DNA of 64,000 bases from a virus: the IMG/VR virus record IMGVR_UViG_3300034102_003113. The stretch is one strand, 5' to 3'. Both the position numbers and the translations under genes were made by a program. The notes under the pieces were generated by a model. The model was not told the origin of the DNA. It saw nothing but the letters and a program-made list of their open reading frames with translations, and ran no database searches. Of this stretch, positions 8,447 through 58,504 are shown in pieces. Position 1 is the stretch's first letter. Each line of letters begins with the position of its first letter.

Positions 8447-11400
8447 GTGTCTAGTCTGTATCGTTGCCGAGCCAGAGTAGCTTATAAGCCTTTCAATTCT
8501 GAGAGGCTTATTGTCTTTGAGGAAAAACAGATCCAAGAGATGAGCGTAAAGCTCAAATGGAACAATACGTTCCCCTCAATGAACTCTCAGGGTACTAACT
8601 CAGCCGATGCCTACACATCTGGAATAAGTCAATCTACCTGCCAAGTAACCATCTCAGATCCTTATCTGACAGGGGCCGCTTGGCCAGCATTATTTGACGC
8701 TGCCTCAATGTGGTCGGCGTCTAATACCGCTCAGACAAATAACATTATTCTTCCTCCTTGTGGGGAGAACCAGGATCCTGTAAGAGATAAGTGCTTTCGT
8801 TACGCTTCGATAGACGATAGCGCTCTTATCAACTCTGATGGTACCTCTAGAGAACTTTCTAGTACCTTCGCCCATATCATAATTTCATTATGGTACGAGG
8901 TTAATGGAACATCGTTCGGATCCGATTATTACTTCAGAGTAAATAGAATCAGTGTTAATCATGGGGCTAATTACCCCTCGGTTACGTTGGCCGGTACTGA
9001 ACCAAAAGCAGTTGTCTTCAATCAAAATCTTATCAATGTAAAATTTGATGAAGGAATGTCTGTTGAGGAAGCATTAAAGAAAATTGCTGAAGAAAGCGGA
9101 TATAAAGCAAGTTTCTGTGTTCCACCTGGCGAAAAAACAACTGATCCATACATCCTCCCACGCTCAATTATCTATAAAGGCGTAACGCCTGATGAGGCGA
9201 TGAAAAAACTCATCGGAGCGACAGGAGGATCTATGCTCTCCCTCCCAGTCAAAGAATTTGGAAATCGAGTGAGCATATGTACTCGAGGCGAGATTACTCA
9301 GAGCTGCACTGTGTTCTATCTAGGTAAAGGACTCTATGAGTCATACCAGATTGATGGCGAACCGCCTGTCACGTTTGCTGCAAGAAACACTCAGAGTGGC
9401 GCAAGTATTAATAATGGCGATCCATACACCTCGGCAAGTTTTGCAGCGGAAAAATACTCTATAAAAGAAGTTATCAAAGAGAAAAGAATCAAAGCCCTAG
9501 AGCAGGTTAAAAAGGTAACTTTCCCAGATCTTTTTAAATCATGTGATAAGAGATGCCAAGGACCACTGTCCGATGGGTATGGATGGTCTGGCGCTGGTCC
9601 TAGTATTGAGAATAAAAGATACATTAAGACAAACTTTTATGGCATAGCACCTAACGGCACTCAGGCTATTTCCTATCTTCCTGGCAAGGTGGAGAGCGCA
9701 TCGGAGGATGAGGGGAAAGTTGTTATTAAGACAGAGTTCTGGTTTCAGGTGTGCAAAGAGGATAAATCAGAAAAATGCTTTGGCCGGTATATCTACCAAG
9801 AGTCGACAAACCTCTCCGATGTTAAAGTAAAGCGCGGAGATGAGGTTAAGATCTCTCAGGCTATCGGCTCATCTACAACAGATAAAAAAGAACTAACCAG
9901 GTTTTATATCCAAGGTCATAGTAATGAATTTACTACCATAGACCCACAGCTTATCTGGAATTGGGCATCACCTGCTGAAACTGCAGCGGATTTTCAAAAT
10001 AAAGATGCTCCTTCCTCAACTCCTACTGGACAGACCCCACCACCATCAAACCAATCTACATCTGGAAGTTTATTAGTAGGCAGAGTAGGATCAACTGGGT
10101 CCTCAACTGGTCCTCATCTTCATGCAGAAAAATTTCCCCAAGGACAAACTGGAGGCCGTGGACAACGCATAGTATCTGCTGATGTAGACCCCTATGTATC
10201 CATCGGTGGCACTCCAGCTAGTACTTGGGGAGTTTATTCTCCATATGGTCCTAGGTCTGGAGGAATGCATTATGGTATAGATTTTTCAGGACCGGGACCT
10301 GGAGGGAAGAACATAAATAGCCAACCAGTTACTGTAACTGGAGGCGCAAAGATACTAAAAACAGGATATGATGGGGGGTATGGTAACTTTGTTGAAATAC
10401 GTACGCCTGCCGGATACGACTTACTTTTAGCCCACCTTCAAGACCAATCAATTCCTCCTAATTTACCTAGTTTGACTAGTTCCGACTCGGCGGGCAATAC
10501 TGAGCCCACTATTGCAACGGCCCCGGCCAATAAGGCACTGACCATTGAAACTTCATTTAAGGGCGTACCACGTGCTCTTCGGATTACACCTGGTAGAACC
10601 ATTCTGTCTTTTATCACTGATTATGATAAGTGGGTGGAGAATGGCGGGCCACGTGGCCAGGATCCATCCACCGATCCCGGCGTATGGTTGCCTTCAAGGT
10701 TTAGGAACTGGTTTGTTGGAGAGGTCGAGTTTGTCTGGAGGCAAGGAGACCTTAGGGTTAATATTGAGGCAAATAACGCTTGGGGTAATAGCGTTATTTT
10801 TGCCCCCACTTTCCCCGATTATCTACAAGGACAGCAGGGCACTGGCGAGTTTGAAATTACAAAAGACTATTATGGGTATATAAGATCCATAGGTGATTTA
10901 TGCTTCCCAATAAAAAATAAAGATGGGAAGATGACTAACTCATGTAAAGAACTTTGCAAAGAGGCTCAGGAATTTTATAAGAAGTATGGTTCTGGGGAAG
11001 GAAGTACAGACACCACCACATCTGCCTCTGGAGATGGCGGAGCGGGGTCTCAGACGGGGTTCCCTGTTGCTAAATGTCAATACACAGGGACGAAATACGA
11101 CCAGGCCAAAGTCAACAAGATCATCAACGCAGCCTACTCTGGTGGAATAAGAACAAACATAGGTCTAGCGGGTGTAGTTGCAAACGCTATCTGGGAATCA
11201 CGTCTAGACCCTAAAGCCCGCGGAGATAACGGTGATGCCTGGGGTGTCTTCCAATGGAACTCACGTAGGCCCGGATTGATCGCCTATGCACAGAGCGTTG
11301 GTGGAGATCCGAATAACTTCGATGTGCAGATGGGATACTTTGTAAAAGAACTTAAGACATCTGAATCAGCAACAGTCCCAGCTGTTAATGGGGCAGGGAC

Positions 11401-32156: not shown

Positions 32157-32684
32157 ATGGATAATGAATTAAGAGTCCCAGAGGGATGGGGATTGGCAGA
32201 GTACGCCGAACCTGGAAAGGATACGGGAAAGACCCAAAAGAATGTTGAGTTGGTTTCTCCTGGTCCTCAATCAGGCGAAGATGATTATCACTCTCAGTAT
32301 GTAGATCCAGAAGGAAAGTTTGGTGCTGCAAAAACAGGACAAGGTGCGTCTAGTCCATCCTCGTATAGTGGAGAGGAGACGGCCCAAGAGGAACCTAAAG
32401 GATCCCAACCTTACGATGTTGGTCAACTCCATCTTGAGGATAAAGAGGTGGTTGTTGAGGATGGAAGACAACGTGGCTATCATTACTATCTAGTCACCCA
32501 TCCAGACAAGGAGTACTTCTACTCAGTAATTCCTAAACTCCGCGGAAACAAAGAGACCTATAAGAGTCCACACAAGTCGACTCGAAAGGAGGCTCTTGAG
32601 GCCGCCTATAAGGTCCTAAATGTTACATTACCCGCCTCTATCTCAGATCAGATGCACTATACCTATCCAGAGAGTGAAATCTGA
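32157..32684 (+). CDS. Acidic hypothetical protein with N-terminal VPEGW tag
   Basis: MDNELRVPEGWGLAEYAE; low-complexity N-half. Confidence 0.7.
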   Translation: MDNELRVPEGWGLAEYAEPGKDTGKTQKNVELVSPGPQSGEDDYHSQYVDPEGKFGAAKTGQGASSPSSYSGEETAQEEPKGSQPYDVGQLHLEDKEVVVEDGRQRGYHYYLVTHPDKEYFYSVIPKLRGNKETYKSPHKSTRKEALEAAYKVLNVTLPASISDQMHYTYPESEI

Positions 32685-33889: not shown

Positions 33890-34073
33890 CCGAGATGAGT
33901 CTTTGATGATCAAAGACCATGGCACAACATGTCTAATCACTGACATCAAAGCCGATGGATATCTCCGCAGGGCACGAATGAAAAAGAATACAACACCACC
34001 AATCGACCGATACTCTAGACCTTGTGGTGGTAGAGGCGGGTTTGATGACTTTGTGGAGAGATGGCATGAATGA
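33867..34073 (+). CDS. Conserved cyanophage-type hypothetical protein
   Basis: 'PDRD..M...GTT.LITD' pattern recalled from small cyanomyovirus ORFs. Confidence 0.6.
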   Translation: MAIHPNPDRDESLMIKDHGTTCLITDIKADGYLRRARMKKNTTPPIDRYSRPCGGRGGFDDFVERWHE

Positions 34074-34476
34074 CTTTAGAACTCCAGATGGTTGGAGTGT
34101 AAGAGGACGGGAGCAAGGTGGCCGAGATTTCTCAGACTCCAAGGAAATGTGGAAGCAATGGAGAAACTCACCCTATGAGGTAAGTAATAAAGGCCAAGTA
34201 AGACGAAAAGGAAGCGGTGAAGTCCGTAAACCTAGAGACGATGGACGTAAGCATCACAGAGTTAATCTAACTTGGGATGGTAATCGTGAGGAACCAATGC
34301 TCCATCAAATGGTTATGGAACTATTCGGTCCGCCAAAGCCTAAAGGAAAGAATATAGTAATCCTCCATAAAGATAACAATGGAACAAACAACTCCATCTC
34401 TAATCTAAAATGGGGAACTAAGTCAGAGAACGTACAACAGGCGCATGACGATGGGTTAATCGATAACTCAAAATAA
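34066..34476 (+). CDS. NUMOD4-HNH endonuclease with N-terminal PDGW leader
   Basis: WK...YEVSNKGQVR (NUMOD4), HQMVMELF, ILHKDNNGTNNSISNLKWGTKSENVQ (HNH_3); ATG 34066 overlaps upstream stop. Confidence 0.85.
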   Translation: MNDFRTPDGWSVRGREQGGRDFSDSKEMWKQWRNSPYEVSNKGQVRRKGSGEVRKPRDDGRKHHRVNLTWDGNREEPMLHQMVMELFGPPKPKGKNIVILHKDNNGTNNSISNLKWGTKSENVQQAHDDGLIDNSK

Positions 34477-43451: not shown

Positions 43452-45293
43452 ATGGCAGCAGAATCAAAAAAACAAGGACATTCTTCGGCAAAGGAGACGT
43501 TGGGGGTGAAAGGCCCATCGAAGATGTACAAATCGATTCTCGCTTGGTTGGAGAACAAAGGCTATCATCTTCGTTTTGATTACAATGCAAAACTTCAAAG
43601 CTTCCACTCTCTCTACGAAGAACATGATCCTTCTATGGATCCTATGGCGCCGAAAAGTGTCCGGTATCCCAAGTGGTTCCAGTTTTTGGTACCAGCTTCT
43701 GAATATCGCCTTGAAGCCGCCCAAGATTTAATCCTTGACGAGACATGTATTGAGGAGATTGGCGCAGATGAGCAGGAATTTGCCGTACCACTTTTCGTAT
43801 ATCGTAGTGGCCGGAGTAGTGAGATCACGGATCACGTCCTAGGACTAGAGAATCTTAAAGCCCTCCGCCATAAGAAGATGGGAGGAGGACAGTATAAACT
43901 AGGTATCTCCCACTCGCCAAATAAAAACAAAGGCAATAAAAAAGCCATTGAGGAGACCTATGCCTATGTCCCTGAGAAGGATTGGTTCACCGAGGAACTC
44001 CAAGAACTTACCTTCGAGGATATCGTAAAGATTTTTCCATACCATGAGGCCCAGATGGTTAAGTTGATTATTGGCCGGGCATGTATTGGTCGGAGTGGAT
44101 CAGTCCATCCTGGCACTGGAGATATCATCGAGCACGGGTTCCGTAAAGCAGGAGTTGTGATCGGTGAACCGGGGGTTGGTAAGACGATTACCCTCAATGG
44201 TATTCTTAATGCAATGAAGTACGTTGGGTATGACGTATCTGCTATGGGAGATTTTGGATCCCGCTTCAATCAGGGATCTGTAATCACCTCCCACCTCGCA
44301 TATAACGACGACCTTACACTGGAAAGTCTTGAGAAGATGCTCAAGGCCCACAGTTTCAAATCGGTGGTTACTGGAGGGACGGAAAAGATCGAGAATAAAG
44401 GTGTCGATGCTGTCGAAGTAGTAGCAAATACTGTCATTCTTGCAAACTGCAATGAGTGGAAGCCGGAGATAACCTATAGTCTTGATAGTGGAGCGATTAG
44501 TCGCTTAGCACCCATCTCTACATACCGCCTCTTTGAACTTGAAGAGATGTCCAATGAGGAAGGCCATGACATCCACCCCGGCTCTCATATCCGGTGGTTG
44601 TGCGAGAAGTATGACACGGATCCTATGTCACTCTATCTGCGCATCTTACGTGATTGCACTGACTTTTTCCTTGGAAAGTGTGAACAAGCAGAGGATATCC
44701 ACTTCTATTCTGAGTCGCTTATTCCATATATGCGTATTCAGATCCATAAAAACTCTCTCGAGTGCTTTATTAGATTTGGTTTCTTGGCCTATGCCATCCG
44801 CCAACGTAAAGCAGATGGTGGTTGGCTTCCTGAGTTAACCCTGGGATCCCTTGCTGAGATACTTGAGGCTACCAGGTTTTTGATGATTGATAAGAGGGCC
44901 GATGGTTTCCGTAATCTTCTCAAGGATGACTGGAATGAGAGGAATCGGTCACAATGGCATCCCTATTGGGCCCAACGTAAACTCCTCATCACCTCCATTG
45001 ACAAGGCCTATGAGATCTTTAACACCTACAAAAACGATAAGGATGTTGCCCTCACAACTGAGAATGTATTCGATGTCCTCCGCCTACGTGATGGTTTCTC
45101 CATGGGTAAAAAGATGACGCATATTGTCCGCACCTGGGAAATGGTCAAGGGTGAGAAGAATAAAATCTATGAGTTGGCAAAGAAAATTGTCGAGCAGATG
45201 ACAGAGGCCGAATTGGAACCTATCTATTCAGAGACTACTAAAGCAAACGTTGAGTGGATTTATGATCCCACCTATGATCCTCAAAAAGTGTGA
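43452..45293 (+). CDS. SF3 (D5-like) DNA helicase
   Basis: GEPGVGKT Walker A, AYNDD Walker B, FKSVVTGG..IENKG, ANCN sensor. Confidence 0.75.
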   Translation: MAAESKKQGHSSAKETLGVKGPSKMYKSILAWLENKGYHLRFDYNAKLQSFHSLYEEHDPSMDPMAPKSVRYPKWFQFLVPASEYRLEAAQDLILDETCIEEIGADEQEFAVPLFVYRSGRSSEITDHVLGLENLKALRHKKMGGGQYKLGISHSPNKNKGNKKAIEETYAYVPEKDWFTEELQELTFEDIVKIFPYHEAQMVKLIIGRACIGRSGSVHPGTGDIIEHGFRKAGVVIGEPGVGKTITLNGILNAMKYVGYDVSAMGDFGSRFNQGSVITSHLAYNDDLTLESLEKMLKAHSFKSVVTGGTEKIENKGVDAVEVVANTVILANCNEWKPEITYSLDSGAISRLAPISTYRLFELEEMSNEEGHDIHPGSHIRWLCEKYDTDPMSLYLRILRDCTDFFLGKCEQAEDIHFYSESLIPYMRIQIHKNSLECFIRFGFLAYAIRQRKADGGWLPELTLGSLAEILEATRFLMIDKRADGFRNLLKDDWNERNRSQWHPYWAQRKLLITSIDKAYEIFNTYKNDKDVALTTENVFDVLRLRDGFSMGKKMTHIVRTWEMVKGEKNKIYELAKKIVEQMTEAELEPIYSETTKANVEWIYDPTYDPQKV

Positions 45294-52230: not shown

Positions 52231-52652
52231 GTCGCATACAAAGAAACTTTTCTCAGTTTGGTGCTGATGCTCAGCAGATGATCATCGACCAAATCCAGTC
52301 CATAGACCTTGAGAAAATTGGACCAAAATCAATCGCCCACGTTGGCAAAACCCTAATCTCTCTAGTTAAGCAATCCCACCAACTCCAAGAAGATGTAGAG
52401 GAAGAGGAAGTGCGGGATAACTGGATTACTATCCGTGAACTCTCCCACATACTTCTCGTGGAGATACTCGATAAGTTTAAAGAGTTAAGTGCCCTTGGTG
52501 AAATCCCTGAATGGGAGAGAGCAAACGTCCTCAATCTGCTCCAAGAGATCACAAAAGTCTGCCACGCAGAAGAAAAACGAGATGCCCTTTCCGAGATCAA
52601 CACCGGCAAAATCATCGATGACAAAGTACTTGATGAGATGCTAGGATTATGA
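52227..52652 (+). CDS. Hypothetical helical protein
   Basis: 141 aa, ATGA-coupled. Confidence 0.6.
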   Translation: MSRIQRNFSQFGADAQQMIIDQIQSIDLEKIGPKSIAHVGKTLISLVKQSHQLQEDVEEEEVRDNWITIRELSHILLVEILDKFKELSALGEIPEWERANVLNLLQEITKVCHAEEKRDALSEINTGKIIDDKVLDEMLGL

Positions 52653-52813
52653 TGAACATTGATCAGGCTAGAGCAGGCGGAGAGGGAATGCTTTCTGCTT
52701 CTGTTAAGAAAGAAGAAGAAGAGGACATGACTGAAGGCCCTGATCTCTTCCAAAGTAAAGAGCAAAAAGTCCAGATCGAAGTCCCAGAAGGTTGGCACTC
52801 TAAGGAGCCTTGA
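52649..52813 (+). CDS. 54-aa micro-protein with C-terminal VPEGW tag (not in ORF track)
   Basis: MMNIDQ...EEEEDMTE...QIEVPEGWHSKEP; ATGA-coupled, fills gap exactly. Confidence 0.75.
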   Translation: MMNIDQARAGGEGMLSASVKKEEEEDMTEGPDLFQSKEQKVQIEVPEGWHSKEP

Positions 52814-53036: not shown

Positions 53037-55424
53037 ATGCCTTTAAAACAAGGATCCTCGGACAAGGTAGTCCAAGATAATATTCGCTGCATCTTAGACA
53101 AAGATGGGTGCGGATATGATCCGCCGTATAAAGACCCGGCTAGAGAGCAATATACTCCAGCCCAGGCTGCGGCTATTGCCTATGCAAAAGCAGGGCGGAG
53201 GAACAACACGGGTAATAAAACCTCTGCATCTAAAAAAACTAAGAGTGTAAAAACCCAAGAGATCAAGACGCCTGAAGCGAAGAAGGAAGAGCCAAAGTCT
53301 CCCGCTCAATCCGCAAAACCTGAAACTGAAACTGATACAAAAAAACCTGGTTCTGATATCCAGATCCCTGAAGGGTGGACAACACAAAAACCCGGAGGGG
53401 ACACTAGTACCTCAAAAAAGAACCAACCGCCTGAGAAGGAGAAGGACGAACTTTCTCCTGAGGCGGACAAGCAGATGCTTGACGAGGTGATGGAAGGGTA
53501 TAAGATGAAGTGGGGCAACAGTGCCTCATTACTTGGCGATGCGTGGGATACGTATGATGCTAAGCAAAAGAAAAAGTTCCTTGCTAATGCAAAGAAGATA
53601 AAAGCAGAGGAACAGGCCAAACAGAATAAAGAAGATAAAAATAGTCCGCCTGCTTCTACGCCCGCGCCCGCACCTGCATCTGCACCAACCACGGAAGCGA
53701 CTCCTCAGTCAGCACCGACTCCAACTCCTACTACTGGAGGTGGAGATGCTGGGGATGCTGATAAGAAGCCTCAGGTTGCTGATGGATGGAAATCAAAAGA
53801 TGATGGTTGGACAACTCATCTAAAGCCAAAGTTTGATGGGGATAATATTAACTACCAGAATAAAGTATATAAACCAACAAAGACTTTACCAGGATCTACC
53901 AATCCTAAACTCTACTCAGACGAAGAAGGTAAACCCAAGTTTGTTGTGAAAGAGGGTGGTGCTAAAGGCCAGAATGATGCGGAATACGCTGCTAACCAGG
54001 TCTATGGCATTCTCTCCCCGCATCTTCCCACCGGTGCCATAAAATCAAGACTCATTGATGGTAAGTTGGTTAATGACTTTATGCCCAACTCTAAAACTGT
54101 TAATGATCTCAGCGAGGATGAGTTAAATAGATACGATGTAAACTCTAAAGTAAGAAAGTCTCTCGCTGCTGACGCGTTAGTCGCCAACTGGGACTATGCT
54201 GGACTTGCAAATGATAATATGATGGTCGATGGCCAGGGTAGAGTACTAAGAATCGACTCTGGTGGGACATTTAATTATAGAGCACAGGGTGAACAGAAAG
54301 ACTTTGATTCGGTGCCTATGGAGATGTGGACACTCCGCTCCAGCACCCAAGGCAAACAATTCTGGGGTAATGCTCAAGAAGAAGATTATGAAAATCTCTG
54401 GAGAGACCAAGTTGCTTATATTGGTCTAGAAGGAAATAAACTTAAGAGCACCATAGCAAATTCAAATCTACCGTCAGAAGTCAAAGAAGCTTTTGGTAAA
54501 AGGGTGGATATTCTTTCAATCGCTGCCCAAGAGGCGAACAATATCGCCAAAAGAGACGGTGTCTCATGGAAGGGAGTAGATCAAGTGATGGAGAGAGCGT
54601 TTAGATACGCCTCCGCTATGAATTCAAAAAATCCTAACTGGGGTGATCTTGTAAGAAACAAAATTCGTGGTGATTTAGAGAAAGCGTTCCCTGAGCAAGC
54701 TCCAAAACTTGACTTCAATCTCCCCACCAACTCTAACAAGTATAACGAGTCAAATTACAAACAAACTGTTAAGGCAGTAGATAATCAATTAAATAGTTCC
54801 GATGCTGGGTATTATGGAGGAGATCCAGATGCTGTAAAACAAATCTCCCCAGAAGCAAAATACGCCTTGAGGGAGTATAGTGGATCTCTATACCAGGATT
54901 TAAATGCCATGGTAAGAGGAAAGACAAAATCTTTCAATGATAATGATATAAAATTCTTCAGTCAGATTGTTGATGTAATGGATGAAAGTTTAGATCAAAT
55001 ACCTGATCATCCAAATGTAGGTATGTTCTATAGAATGAATAAGATTTCTAATAAATATACCGACGACGTTGATGCGCTTAATAACTTAAAACCTGGAGAT
55101 ACATATGTATCTAAAGGATACTCTTCTTACACAGATGACCATGAAGGAGATGAGAATAACAGAAATGAGATACTTGATTCTTTCTATCATGGTAGTACAT
55201 CTAAGACAAACTTTATAACCATTTACCAAGGAAAGAATATAAAAAATATCGCTCCTCTATCAGATATTCAAAACGAGAGAGAATCACTCATGCAAAGAGA
55301 TAAAAACCTTAAAGTTGCAAGTATTAAGGAAGAATCGATTAAAGATTGGCCAAATATCAGCTGGGGAGGCAATGAAACTATGACCGGTAAGATTAAAGTT
55401 ATCTATCTTACAGATGCTGATTGA
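53037..55424 (+). CDS. Multidomain effector: disordered leader + PI3/4K/HipA-like kinase + VIP2/Alt-like ADP-ribosyltransferase
   Basis: Kinase: GST loop, FVVK, AEYAA, DALVANWD..N, RIDSG. ART: Y...Y..LN..R, FYR, GYSSYT, QNERE. Confidence 0.8.
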   Translation: MPLKQGSSDKVVQDNIRCILDKDGCGYDPPYKDPAREQYTPAQAAAIAYAKAGRRNNTGNKTSASKKTKSVKTQEIKTPEAKKEEPKSPAQSAKPETETDTKKPGSDIQIPEGWTTQKPGGDTSTSKKNQPPEKEKDELSPEADKQMLDEVMEGYKMKWGNSASLLGDAWDTYDAKQKKKFLANAKKIKAEEQAKQNKEDKNSPPASTPAPAPASAPTTEATPQSAPTPTPTTGGGDAGDADKKPQVADGWKSKDDGWTTHLKPKFDGDNINYQNKVYKPTKTLPGSTNPKLYSDEEGKPKFVVKEGGAKGQNDAEYAANQVYGILSPHLPTGAIKSRLIDGKLVNDFMPNSKTVNDLSEDELNRYDVNSKVRKSLAADALVANWDYAGLANDNMMVDGQGRVLRIDSGGTFNYRAQGEQKDFDSVPMEMWTLRSSTQGKQFWGNAQEEDYENLWRDQVAYIGLEGNKLKSTIANSNLPSEVKEAFGKRVDILSIAAQEANNIAKRDGVSWKGVDQVMERAFRYASAMNSKNPNWGDLVRNKIRGDLEKAFPEQAPKLDFNLPTNSNKYNESNYKQTVKAVDNQLNSSDAGYYGGDPDAVKQISPEAKYALREYSGSLYQDLNAMVRGKTKSFNDNDIKFFSQIVDVMDESLDQIPDHPNVGMFYRMNKISNKYTDDVDALNNLKPGDTYVSKGYSSYTDDHEGDENNRNEILDSFYHGSTSKTNFITIYQGKNIKNIAPLSDIQNERESLMQRDKNLKVASIKEESIKDWPNISWGGNETMTGKIKVIYLTDAD

Positions 55425-55430
55425 TTAACC

Positions 55431-55583
55431 ATGACAAAACCCTACGAAAAACTAACAGACGCCCAGAAAAAACGCCTTGCTATGAGAAGACAAGCGCTAG
55501 ACGATGATAGTACCGATGCTTTCTTTGAGATACAAAAAACAAAACCACAACCCCCTGAAGGTTGGAAGGAGCAAGGGAAATAA
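55431..55583 (+). CDS. 50-aa micro-protein with C-terminal PPEGW tag (not in ORF track)
   Basis: MTKPYEKLTDAQKKRLAMRR...PQPPEGWKEQGK; fills gap. Confidence 0.7.
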   Translation: MTKPYEKLTDAQKKRLAMRRQALDDDSTDAFFEIQKTKPQPPEGWKEQGK

Positions 55584-55616: not shown

Positions 55617-56261
55617 ATGCCTCTCAAAGAAGGATCCAGTCAAGAGACTATCTCTGGCAATATTAAGCGCGAGATGGAATCTGGCAAACCACAAAAACAG
55701 GCCATCGCCATTGCATTAGACAAAGCTGGGAAGTCTAACCGCAACTCAGCCGACTCAGCCGAACCCGAAGAGGGACAAATGGCCCAGGGTGATGTCCGTG
55801 CAATCATGGCCATGGCTCAAAAGATCGATGGCATGGTCTCAGAAATGACTGACCTTCCTGAGTGGGTCCAGGCTAAAATCACAAAAGCCCAGGATTACCT
55901 ATCTGCAGTTACCCAACACCTTGCCCATCCTGGTGAAGATGAACAGGCTGAGGATATGGCCGAAGGTAAAGACCAAGACAATGATGGGGATGTAGACTCT
56001 GAAGACTGGAAGATCTCTCGTGATGAGGCTATTAAAGGAGCCATGGGAGACGAGGAGACTTCTGATAATGCCGAAGACTCCGATCCTTGTTGGAAGGATT
56101 ACGAGATGGTGGGGATGAAGAAAGGCCAAGGTGGTAAACCAGTACCCAATTGTGTGCCTAAGTCATCTGATAATGGCGAATGTGAAGAATGCTCAGATGA
56201 ATACTCTGAGGTGTCTGTGCCAGATGGTTGGTCGGTGAGTTCTAATGTCTACAAAGATTAA
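55617..56261 (+). CDS. Modular acidic protein (putative internal head protein), C-terminal VPDGW
   Basis: MPLK.GSS module, [12 protein letters not shown] module, CWK.Y..VG.KK..VPNCVP module joined by acidic linkers. Confidence 0.7.
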
Positions 56262-56279
56262 TGTGCCAGATGGTTGGTC
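56217..56279 (+). repeat. 17-bp direct repeat GTGCCAGATGGTTGGTC encoding VPDGWS in two overlapping genes
   Basis: Copies at 56217-56233 and 56263-56279. Confidence 0.85.
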
Positions 56280-56727
56280 AGTAGACCCCACCTTCGGTGA
56301 AATTCCATCTCCGTATGATAAGAAACAGCATCTTGAGGGGCAACAAGATAAGTCCCAGATGCTAGAAGATGAGATAGATCCGTCTGAAGAAGCGGATATG
56401 TCTGAAGATGAGTATGAATACTGGAGATCTATTGCCACTGGTCAACCAGAGACATCCAATGAAGCAAATCAGGCAAATTATGCCGATGATGGTAAAAAGT
56501 ATACTCACACCTACAAAGATCCTAAAACAGGTAATACTCGCAAGGTTCGTTATGGGGCCAAAGGTTACTCTATTGCCCCCGGCACCAAGAAAGGTGATGC
56601 CTACTGTGCCAGATCCTTGGGAGACATGAAGTCAGAAGGGATGGATTGTTCCGGCCCAGATCGAAATACTCCAATGTGCCTCTCACGTAAAAAGTGGAGA
56701 TGTAAAGGCGCTAAATCTTCTAGGTAG
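56245..56727 (+). CDS. Protein with N-terminal VPDGW, acidic leader and basic Cys-containing C-domain
   Basis: [13 protein letters not shown]; [23 protein letters not shown]...KKWRC. Confidence 0.7.
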
Positions 56728-56819: not shown

Positions 56820-57233
56820 ATGACCACAGTATTCTTTTACGTTTTCGTATTCTCTTCCTGGGGCTTAGGACTTTTGTCTTGGATGGTTGCCTTAAGCGAT
56901 TTTATGACTCGCAGGGATCTGGAAAGCAAGGAAAAGTTTCTAGAGATAACCCAGAAAAAAGCACTCTTCAATCGCTTTAATGATATCAGTGGGATTCAGA
57001 TCCCCAGTCTAACTCAATCAGAAAAAACTAAGAAGGCCCCATGGGGCAGAGTTGGAGAAGCTGAAGAAAGCCCAGAACTTATCCCAGAAAAGATCAAAGA
57101 ACTAATGAAGTCATCTCCCAATCACCCTGAGGTGGAAGAGATCGATGGTACAGATCAGATTCTAGGCGTTAAGTTTGAAGCACGTGATTATCCCCCTGTG
57201 TTTGGCGATGGAGACGGAGAAGACGACGAATGA
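56820..57233 (+). CDS. Membrane protein, candidate holin/lysis accessory
   Basis: Single N-terminal hydrophobic segment; coupled to endolysin. Confidence 0.45.
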   Translation: MTTVFFYVFVFSSWGLGLLSWMVALSDFMTRRDLESKEKFLEITQKKALFNRFNDISGIQIPSLTQSEKTKKAPWGRVGEAEESPELIPEKIKELMKSSPNHPEVEEIDGTDQILGVKFEARDYPPVFGDGDGEDDE

Positions 57234-58504
57234 AAGCACCAATTTGTGGCATTGAGCTTATCAAAAGGTTTGAGGGTTGCCATCTTGAGGCGTATCCCGA
57301 TCCTCTCACAAAGGCAAAACCTTACACCATAGGCTGGGGATCTACGAAGAAAAAAGACGGGACTCCCTTCGCCCTCGGAGAAGTAATCACGCAGCAAGAA
57401 GCAGATGAACTCCTTCTTTATCAACTAGAGGCAGGATATCTGCCACCTCTTGCATCTATTCCATACTTCAATGAGATGTCTCCAGAACAAGTTGGAGCAT
57501 TATTGAGTTTTGCTTATAACCTAGGTGCAAGATTCTATGGTTCAGAAGGATTTGAAACAATATCCAGAAGACTTAGAAACCGCGAATGGGAACTTATCCC
57601 AGATGCATTGTTCCTCTATAGAAACCCAGGAACGGACGTAGAGGAAGGACTTAAGAGACGTAGAGTGGCCGAAGGGGCCCTCTGGTCTAAAGGTTTAAAA
57701 AAGGATAAAATGGAAAAACAACAAATAGTTGCTTTACAGGACACTATACTTAAAAAAGAACCTCTCCAATCCTACCAACTCGACTTCAACCTTAAAAGAG
57801 TGGTGCAGAAAGGAAAGGGTTACCAGGTAATTGACATTACCGATGAGGGTATACACTCTAAAGTGACCTTGGATTATGGTGCTGGAGTATGGTATATCTA
57901 TAATCCGCATTGGAAAGTACAAGGTGTCCATGATGTAGTATATAAGCAGGGAAGCCATCGCATCCTCCAGGTAAAATACTTCCCCCAGAGAGACAGTCGC
58001 ACTACTCATGCCCATCGCATGTGCTTCTCTAGCTCTTGCTCGATGATGGCCGACTTCCTTAACCCTAAGGCAATTGATGTTGCCGAACAGGAAGACGACT
58101 TCTACATGAAGAACTACGTGTTTAGGTACGGAGATACTACTAGTTCCGATGCTCAAATCAAAGCTCTCCGTGATGTTGGAATTAAGGCATCTTTCCGTCA
58201 GAACCTCTCACAGGTTGATATTGAAGCACAGATAGATAAAGGAATCCCTGTACCCGTAGGTATTCTCCATCATGGCCACGTTTCCGCCCCTAGAGGTGGT
58301 GGGCATTGGGTGTGTATTATTGGTTATGATAAGATAAACGCTCAATATATCGTCCATGACCCATATGGTGAGTTAGATCTTACAAATGGTGGGTATTATG
58401 GATCCACTAATGGTGCTTCTCAGAGATACTCCTATTCAAACTTTAATAAGCGCTGGATGGCAGAAGGAATGGGTAGTGGTTGGGGGATCATTGCTGAGAG
58501 GTGA
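57230..58504 (+). CDS. Endolysin: GH24 lysozyme + C39-like cysteine peptidase
   Basis: IKRFEG..AYPD..TIGWG, GLKRRRVAE; QRD..CFSSSC, GGGHW, HDPYG. Confidence 0.9.
   Translation: MKAPICGIELIKRFEGCHLEAYPDPLTKAKPYTIGWGSTKKKDGTPFALGEVITQQEADELLLYQLEAGYLPPLASIPYFNEMSPEQVGALLSFAYNLGARFYGSEGFETISRRLRNREWELIPDALFLYRNPGTDVEEGLKRRRVAEGALWSKGLKKDKMEKQQIVALQDTILKKEPLQSYQLDFNLKRVVQKGKGYQVIDITDEGIHSKVTLDYGAGVWYIYNPHWKVQGVHDVVYKQGSHRILQVKYFPQRDSRTTHAHRMCFSSSCSMMADFLNPKAIDVAEQEDDFYMKNYVFRYGDTTSSDAQIKALRDVGIKASFRQNLSQVDIEAQIDKGIPVPVGILHHGHVSAPRGGGHWVCIIGYDKINAQYIVHDPYGELDLTNGGYYGSTNGASQRYSYSNFNKRWMAEGMGSGWGIIAER

Follow-up and report, generated by a model that had tools for sequence, protein, structure and literature searches.

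A kinase-fold and ADP-ribosyltransferase protein as a probable virion-delivered cargo of an uncultured TIM5-like cyanophage

We analyzed a 64,000-nucleotide stretch of viral DNA (IMG/VR record IMGVR_UViG_3300034102_003113; hereafter, the window) and in particular the gene at 53037..55424 on the + strand, which is a single uninterrupted open reading frame (ORF) for a protein of 795 amino acids (aa) plus the stop codon. This protein, P0001, consists of a leader, a Lys/Pro-rich linker that contains the motif PEGW, a helical hairpin, a kinase-fold domain, and an ADP-ribosyltransferase (ART) domain. The most likely reading, which we hold with moderate confidence, is that a TIM5-like cyanomyovirus uses P0001 as a modular cargo protein, which is delivered by the virion. 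It would be made together with the virion proteins, loaded into the particle (most likely into the head) via its leader and/or its PEGW tags, and brought in alongside the DNA when the next host is infected. In that cell, the proposed activity of the kinase-fold domain is ATP-dependent phosphorylation of a host protein (Ser/Thr kinases, namely CotH, CtkA, and HipA, are among the nearest folds), and that of the ART is NAD+-dependent ADP-ribosylation of arginine, as with the ExE loop in Vis, in the iota/C2-type toxins, and in T4 Alt. The two domains would probably hit the same target or pathway, in early host takeover or counter-defence, because relatives nearly always keep the order of kinase and then ART.

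P0001 has 23 full-length homologues from metagenomes, with identities of 33-91% across aa 270-795, the part that was queried. Its start codon is supported because the N-terminus, MPLKQGSS, is kept among the full-length homologues. Three alignments are used below: A1 contains the full-length P0001 family; A2 is a domain-only alignment of 37 kinase-domain sequences from IMG/VR loci (29% mean column identity), which was used for the model of the kinase-fold domain; and A3 contains 57 further proteins.

The kinase-fold domain, which is atypical and protein-kinase-like, spans aa 262-560 (53820..54716, + strand), with a conserved core at about aa 278-496. A preliminary description of the gene, made from the DNA letters, had proposed a kinase followed by an ART; structure prediction and fold matches support both domains, and their catalytic residues are conserved. 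The AlphaFold (AF2) model of aa 262-560 has a predicted local distance difference test score (pLDDT) of 94.8 and a predicted template modeling score (pTM) of 0.90. When this model was compared to 48,161 chains with VIA-align, the top matches were exclusively kinase-fold enzymes. The best were CotH (5jda, Z = 12.6, 224 residues aligned), PI4KII-alpha (4pla, Z = 12.1), and CtkA (3akj, Z = 12.1), with actin-fragmin kinase (AFK, Z = 11.0) and HipA (Z = 10.6) further down, along with PI4KIII-beta, Vps34, ATM, RIO, Fam20, and MavQ. Foldseek concurs (PI3K, PI4K, and CtkA). The predicted structure clearly belongs to the branch of the PI3/4K, AFK, CotH, and HipA type. Because the top structural matches lie within about one Z unit of each other, no parent family can be named within this branch. 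CotH, PI4KII-alpha, CtkA, AFK, and HipA match the domain over 198-228 aligned residues (Z of 10.6-12.6) and have the same motif logic (Gly-rich loop, Lys, Glu, Asp...Asn, and Asp-x-Gly), but their identity to the P0001 domain is just 9-16%.

The motifs of the domain are a Gly-rich loop (LPGSTNP, aa 284-290), K305, E316, D379-x6-D386, D393-N394, and D407-x-GG, followed towards the C-terminus by RAQGxxK (aa 415-421) and R489. In the DNA, those that had been picked out in the preliminary description are where it placed them: VVK at 53943-53951, E316 at 53982-53984, DALVANWD at 54171-54194, DN at 54213-54218, and IDSGG at 54252-54266. Sixteen positions, namely K305, E316, Y323, D379, N384, W385, D386, D393, N394, D407, G409, G410, A416, G418, K421, and R489, are invariant across the 37 sequences of A2, and the equivalent columns are unchanged in A3. 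From their order and spacing, we infer that these include the ATP-binding Lys, the helix Glu, the catalytic Asp...Asn segment, and the Asp-x-Gly-Gly metal site. A similarly extended catalytic segment is found in PI4KII-alpha. The alignments show that the domain carries a complete conserved set of residues of the kind predicted for ATP binding and phosphotransfer.

At the level of sequence, no model in Pfam or NCBIfam reaches its threshold on the kinase-fold domain, and neither single-sequence nor profile searches against the sequences in the Protein Data Bank (PDB) gave a significant match. A few relatives give weak hints, and these are solely to HipA_2 (0.007), HipA_C (0.0045), APH, and Act-Frag_cataly. 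With the sequence models below threshold, we rejected an assignment to a named family. Aligning the domain to E. coli HipA with hhalign placed the helix with the conserved Glu alone (probability of 1.9%). In the ESM Atlas, both the kinase-fold domain and the leader fall in clusters of 'hypothetical protein' only; the nearest named clusters to the kinase-fold domain are LepB_N and PI3_PI4_kinase.

Is this domain a protein kinase? It might instead phosphorylate a small molecule or a lipid, perform some other nucleotide-dependent chemistry, or regulate or aim the ART. Other kinase-fold enzymes have such activities: SelO performs AMPylation, and SidJ performs glutamylation of an ART. Lipid kinases are among the top folds (PI4KII-alpha, PI4KIII-beta, Vps34, and MavQ), the two nearest named Atlas clusters fit this idea as well, and the domain has a tight and directional link to ARTs and is also found with the NAD/ADP-ribose enzymes NUDIX and 2H (see below). 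On the other hand, CotH, CtkA, AFK, and HipA, which are protein kinases, match the fold just as well, and the sequence-level hints that bear on this question are to HipA families only. Also, the kinase-fold domain can work without an ART, because stand-alone and ART-less forms exist (L006, P0049, and P0115). Overall, a role other than protein phosphorylation seems somewhat unlikely.

The R-S-ExE mono-ADP-ribosyltransferase domain (aa 570-795, 54744..55421, + strand) is recognizable from its sequence as well as from its fold. PF03496 (ADPrib_exo_Tox) matches aa 570-769 with 38.4 bits (the gathering cut-off is 23.4), and a profile of the ART family finds Vis in the PDB (4xzj, E = 1.6e-8), then SpvB, C2-I, Tre1, and C3. 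In the AlphaFold model of the full-length protein, the block-mean pLDDT of the ART is mostly 74-93, with a low-confidence stretch at aa 702-715. Foldseek matches the ART to Vis (4xzj, E = 6.2e-7), to Tre1 (6dre_B, TMt of 0.82 with a root mean square deviation of 3.8), and to Certhrax, C3, VIP2, and ExoS. Y614-x8-N623, R666, S697-Y-T699, and E747-R-E749 are invariant in A1, and the preliminary description had again located these motifs correctly (FYR at 55026-55034, SYT at 55125-55133, and ERE at 55275-55283). Across 101 related ART domains, the same columns contain the Arg in 95, the Ser in 88, and the two Glu of ExE in 98 and 100. Vis, Tre1, C3, VIP2, Certhrax, and SpvB share the fold, the catalytic Arg, the Ser-x-Thr, and the Glu-x-Glu with P0001, but they are bacterial toxins or effectors of type VI secretion systems, whereas the ART of P0001 is encoded by a phage, lies behind a kinase-fold domain, and has insertions of its own. 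Arginine is the acceptor for the clade of ARTs with a Glu-x-Glu loop, and we infer that the ART of P0001 modifies arginine as well.

The pairing of these two domains is widespread in phages and yet unstudied. When a profile of the kinase-fold domain was run against 1.84 billion representatives, 5,756 clusters matched at E <= 0.001 and 3,169 at 1e-30. Many of these proteins have 1,000-7,000 aa. (P0026, a metagenomic protein of 3,416 aa, has five copies of the kinase-fold domain, with 1,087 bits in total, and several proteins of 5,000-7,000 aa have two to four copies.) In ten of the kinase-fold proteins, four of which have just 247-275 aa, no Pfam family was found across the domain. In 57 representatives, the Pfam partners of the domain were ADPrib_exo_Tox (23), MuF (12), the ART family PF01129 (6), NUDIX (5), and portal (2), and also 2H. 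Fusions of the domain in IMG/VR loci are to MuF (L007, L013), to a portal protein (L014), and to ARTs (L010, L014, L023). Among the structure matches in BFVD are a portal fusion, proteins from the Gordonia phages GodonK and Sixama, and proteins named 'ADP-ribosyltransferase' from Mycobacterium phage Onyinye and from an uncultured phage. Cultured phages with the domain, though not with the exact P0001 gene, thus include GodonK (gp67) and Onyinye, and also Pseudomonas phage Dolphis, again in an 'ADP-ribosyltransferase' protein. With an iterated ART profile, we found an ART in 84 of 148 representatives (a non-random sample, being the best-scoring ones), and 74 of them had the Arg, the Ser, and the ExE all present. 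The ART follows the kinase-fold domain in 82 of the 84.

Our searches of the literature for a described kinase-ART cassette of phages returned nothing specific. Two surveys cover polyvalent proteins and the effectors that phages fuse to MuF or portal proteins (Iyer et al. 2017, PMC5512222; Iyer et al. 2022, PMC9503650), and the kinase-ART pairing is not described in either; the terms 'protein kinase', 'HipA', 'PI3K', and 'PI4K' are absent from PMC9503650. PMC5512222 does describe a clade of kinases that has lost the C-terminal subdomain and in which a His...Asp pair is split by an insert, mainly from Verrucomicrobia and Bacteroidetes. By this description, the P0001 domain is probably distinct from that clade, as it lacks a conserved His and has a helical C-lobe with the invariant R489. 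What is particular to P0001 is the cyanophage setting, the lack of a MuF or portal domain, and the arrangement of leader and PEGW.

The near-fixed order of the two domains suggests that they may function jointly, instead of being two independent warheads. A stronger version of this idea is that kinase-then-ART forms one obligate machine for a two-step modification, in which, for example, one host target receives a mark based on ADP-ribose that phosphorylation primes or completes. Such proteins would make up a large and unnamed class of phage effectors, and in TIM5-like cyanophages they would be loaded into the particle by a hitherto undescribed address system, made up of the MPLKxGSS leader and the PEGW tags, instead of by fusion to MuF or portal. 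We regard this stronger version as doubtful.

The ART is also the part of the protein that is exchanged. Relative to P0001, the proteins P0012-P0018 have 74-94% identity across the leader, the hairpin, and the kinase-fold domain, but merely 29-33% identity in the ART. The ART module has thus been exchanged on a conserved chassis, and the exchange suggests an arms race at the target of the ART.

Directly 3' of the P0001 gene is an ORF of 50 aa (55431..55583, + strand) that ends in PPEGWKEQGK and that encodes a possible partner protein. It is conserved in three related loci (L001/L002/L005), and in three others (L003, L088, L089) an ORF with another body has the same PEGW tail. An ORF of 43-50 aa always lies directly after the kinase-ART gene (e.g., L003 at about 8757-8890, or L088 downstream of 2655). 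Across lineages, the body of this small protein varies fast but the PEGW-x-EQ/K tail is retained, and the protein may be a partner or an immunity-like protein.

The latter possibility leads to another explanation for P0001, which is that it belongs to a system like the polymorphic toxins: the variable ART would act as the toxin, with competing phages or cells as its victims, and the immunity protein would be encoded by the ORF at 55431-55583. Swapping of the ART on a conserved chassis would fit, and so would a small ORF that is always 3' of the gene and whose body differs where the ART differs. However, divergence of the whole protein is likewise accompanied by differences in the small ORFs, and their PEGW tail is shared with the other proteins of the module, which is a better fit to a common role in the virion. 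Scans of viral and metagenome contigs with P0012 gave no locus in which the exchanged ART sits on the close chassis, and the loci that were compared are more divergent. The lineage of cyanophages is lytic, too (PMC10087341). A toxin system therefore seems very unlikely.

Evidence about how P0001 might be packaged begins with its leader. The leader module (aa 1-57, 53037..53207, + strand) matches phrog_2423, whose annotation gives no function, and is near-invariant in A1. Its pattern is MPLKxGSS...NI...QAAAIAYAKAG, and relative to the common form, the form in P0001 has an insertion of about 20 aa. A compact form of the leader begins another ORF of the window (55617..56261, + strand; phrog_2423, E = 1.1e-17), which encodes a protein of 214 aa with a C-terminal VPDGW tag; the C-terminal half of this protein matches S-TIM5 gp066. 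The leader motif is present in 402 phage records. In Acinetobacter phage Scipio (L097:3501-4859), the leader heads a DUF2213 'prohead core protein protease' that is directly upstream of the capsid genes, and in Pseudomonas phage 14-1 (L098:3501-3707), the leader forms an ORF of 68 aa that is flanked by the genes for MuF and DUF2213. Because of these two contexts, we link the leader to head assembly. More broadly, leaders of the form MPLxKGSS...QAxAIA..AG occur either as stand-alone proteins of 60-100 aa in head-gene modules or as fusions to DUF2213.

The preliminary description took the first 270 or so aa to be disordered. This holds for aa 54-136 and 200-261, which are modeled with low confidence, but other parts are predicted to be ordered: in the full-length model, the leader has helices at aa 9-21 and 41-57, and a helical hairpin (aa 141-200, 53457..53636, + strand) is formed by helices at 141-172 and 175-200 with block-mean pLDDT of 70-88. 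The hairpin seems to be a repeatable unit, as some homologues have one or two extra copies of it (A1 columns ~301-360) with a similar W...KK pattern.

The short tags that the preliminary description had seen are real. The motif P[ED]GW occurs 9 times in the roughly 20,200 residues of the likely proteins of the window, versus 0.14 expected (about 65-fold), and the maximum in 2,000 shuffles was 3. The motif is usually V/I-P-E/D-G-W, and 6 of the sites are at most about 20 residues from a terminus. The regions that bear it are at 52649-52813, 53367-53378, 55431-55583, 55617-56261, 56245-56727, 32157-32684, and 34024-34476. The second of these is the tag within P0001 (aa 111-114, 53367..53378, + strand), of which P111 is invariant and G113 and W114 are nearly invariant in A1. 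P0001 also has ADGW and DDGW motifs immediately before the kinase-fold domain (aa 248-258, 53778..53810, + strand); as homologues have PAGW at this site, the acidic residue is not kept there. P[ED]GW is kept in the S-TIM5 counterparts gp067, gp066, and gp065. In particular, the ORF of 54 aa that is 5' of the P0001 gene (52649..52813, + strand) ends in VPEGWHSKEP, and its counterpart, S-TIM5 gp067 (50 aa, ending in VVPDGWKTKE), is a 'virion structural protein and packaging' in the annotation of NC_019516. The motif P[ED]GW may serve as a peptide for docking or be cut by a protease. For comparison, the prohead protease of T4 cleaves after Ile/Val-x-Glu. A gp21-like protease (PF03420) was not found in the complete genome L004 or in S-TIM5, but this family had no match in any control genome either.

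Relatives of the phage suggest how P0001 was assembled. In the slot of the P0001 gene, related TIM5-like contigs encode a stand-alone protein of 96-104 aa that consists of the leader, a Lys-rich stretch, and VPEGW with 7-9 more residues. In the phages with a stand-alone leader, ARTs are encoded separately, by one or two genes whose products have about 300-330 aa, start with MSTxIxVPEGW, and continue with a Lys/Pro-rich linker. The PEGW at aa 111-114 of P0001 corresponds both to the C-terminal tag of the lone leader protein and to the N-terminal tag of the lone ARTs. So, P0001 looks like a leader protein and a cargo protein that were joined at the PEGW they share, with a cargo that also gained the kinase-fold domain. 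The kinase-fold domain also exists alone in the TIM5-like group, because a protein of 406 aa (L006:5686-6906) has a kinase-fold domain that is 50% identical, with no ART and no MPLK leader. S-TIM5 itself has neither the stand-alone leader protein nor the separate ART genes.

The location of the gene is another piece of circumstantial evidence. The P0001 gene begins 18 nucleotides 3' of the preceding ORF and is in line with the counterparts of S-TIM5 gp071, gp070, gp069, and gp067, all of which are labeled as virion structural proteins in NC_019516. No terminator-like site was found on the + strand across 45-59 kb. The proposal that P0001 is made late comes from its position, that is, its co-directional and tight packing with genes whose counterparts have virion annotations and the lack of a + strand terminator. 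The claim of delivery by the virion is supported indirectly throughout: by the link between the leader and head modules, by the PEGW tags, and by the fusions to MuF and portal in other phages.

Alternatively, P0001 could be a cytoplasmic effector that is not packaged and acts in the same cell that produced it, as T4 ModA/ModB and T7 gp0.7 do, with the leader and the tags serving some other purpose, such as chaperoning during assembly or regulation. In favour of this, P0001 lacks a MuF (PF04233) or portal domain (in a Pfam search at E up to 1), and PEGW is also found in an HNH endonuclease and an AAA ATPase, which are unlikely to be in the virion. Nevertheless, the S-TIM5 counterparts of the neighboring genes are annotated as virion proteins, the leader is fused elsewhere to a protein of the prohead scaffold or protease type, and the same cassette is joined to MuF and portal proteins in many phages. 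An unpackaged effector hence seems unlikely.

Some of our observations weigh against delivery of P0001 in the head, or against its proposed action, and should be kept in mind. First, since P0001 itself has no MuF or portal domain, the argument for an anchor in the head is borrowed from its relatives, and the PEGW tag is shared with the two presumably non-virion proteins just mentioned. Second, the gene adjoins genes that resemble those for the tail and baseplate (CIS_tube, a tape-measure-like gene, and a gp25-like gene), not head genes, and because of this, the compartment might be the lumen of the tail instead of the head. Third, S-TIM5 and its cultured kin do not have the P0001 gene. Fourth, co-occurrence of domains in multi-domain phage proteins, which we counted in the best-scoring representatives, is no proof of functional coupling. 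Finally, protein substrates are not assured because the nearest folds include the lipid kinases PI4KII and PI3K.

A close precedent for a virion-delivered P0001 is Alt of phage T4, which also has a C-terminal ART of the R-S-E type on a long N-terminal extension. According to the T4 record, Alt is in the capsid and enters with the DNA, and alt lies directly after genes for the baseplate hub and the tail tube, which is similar to the position of the P0001 gene. P0001 has a weak and partial match to the Alt-like PHROG 802 (E = 1.5e-4), and the sole match with hhalign was to residues 408-485 of Alt (E = 0.0025, probability of 11.7%), which does not amount to full-length orthology. Also, Alt has no MPLKxGSS leader, and the ART of P0001 is closer to Vis or Tre1. 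We considered whether Alt might be a hidden kinase-ART and rejected this, as the profile of the kinase-fold domain finds nothing in Alt. The effectors of polyvalent proteins or of MuF and portal fusions resemble P0001 in that several host-directed enzymes (in P0001, two) are on one chain, that packaging and injection are predicted, and that ARTs of the Alt/VIP2 type are typical cargo; in P0001, however, the small leader protein fills the place of MuF or portal. T7 gp0.7 is similar in that this phage kinase acts on host proteins for takeover of the cell. It is expressed early, is not in the virion, and belongs to another lineage of kinases. PMC5512222 names T7 gp0.7 as a precedent.

As to the phage, the primase of the window (43452-45293) shares 61.5-62.5% identity with its counterparts in cyanophages S-TIM5, S-TIM54, S-TIM61, and S-TIM66, and the window has an S-TIM5-like order of genes: thymidylate synthase, polymerase, primase, the block of virion proteins, and ATPase. 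Therefore, the window is from an uncultured TIM5-like cyanomyovirus. The TIM5-like phages infect marine Synechococcus and are lytic (PMC10087341). At the end of the module that contains P0001, a protein of 424 aa (57230-58504) contains both a domain of phage lysozyme and a peptidase domain that is C39-like and papain-type; it has 70-85% identity in every TIM5-like relative that we examined and may be a virion-associated enzyme that degrades the cell wall.

Proteins that enter with the DNA act before the genes of the phage are expressed, so that the first minutes of infection, like the contest with the defences of the host, depend on them. A kinase-fold domain that lacks a family model, occurs in thousands of clusters, and is usually ahead of an ART points to a common and unstudied strategy for modifying the host. 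The arrangement of leader and PEGW tags is a possible route by which myoviruses load exchangeable cargo. In marine cyanophages, the kinase-ART pair could affect the takeover of Synechococcus.

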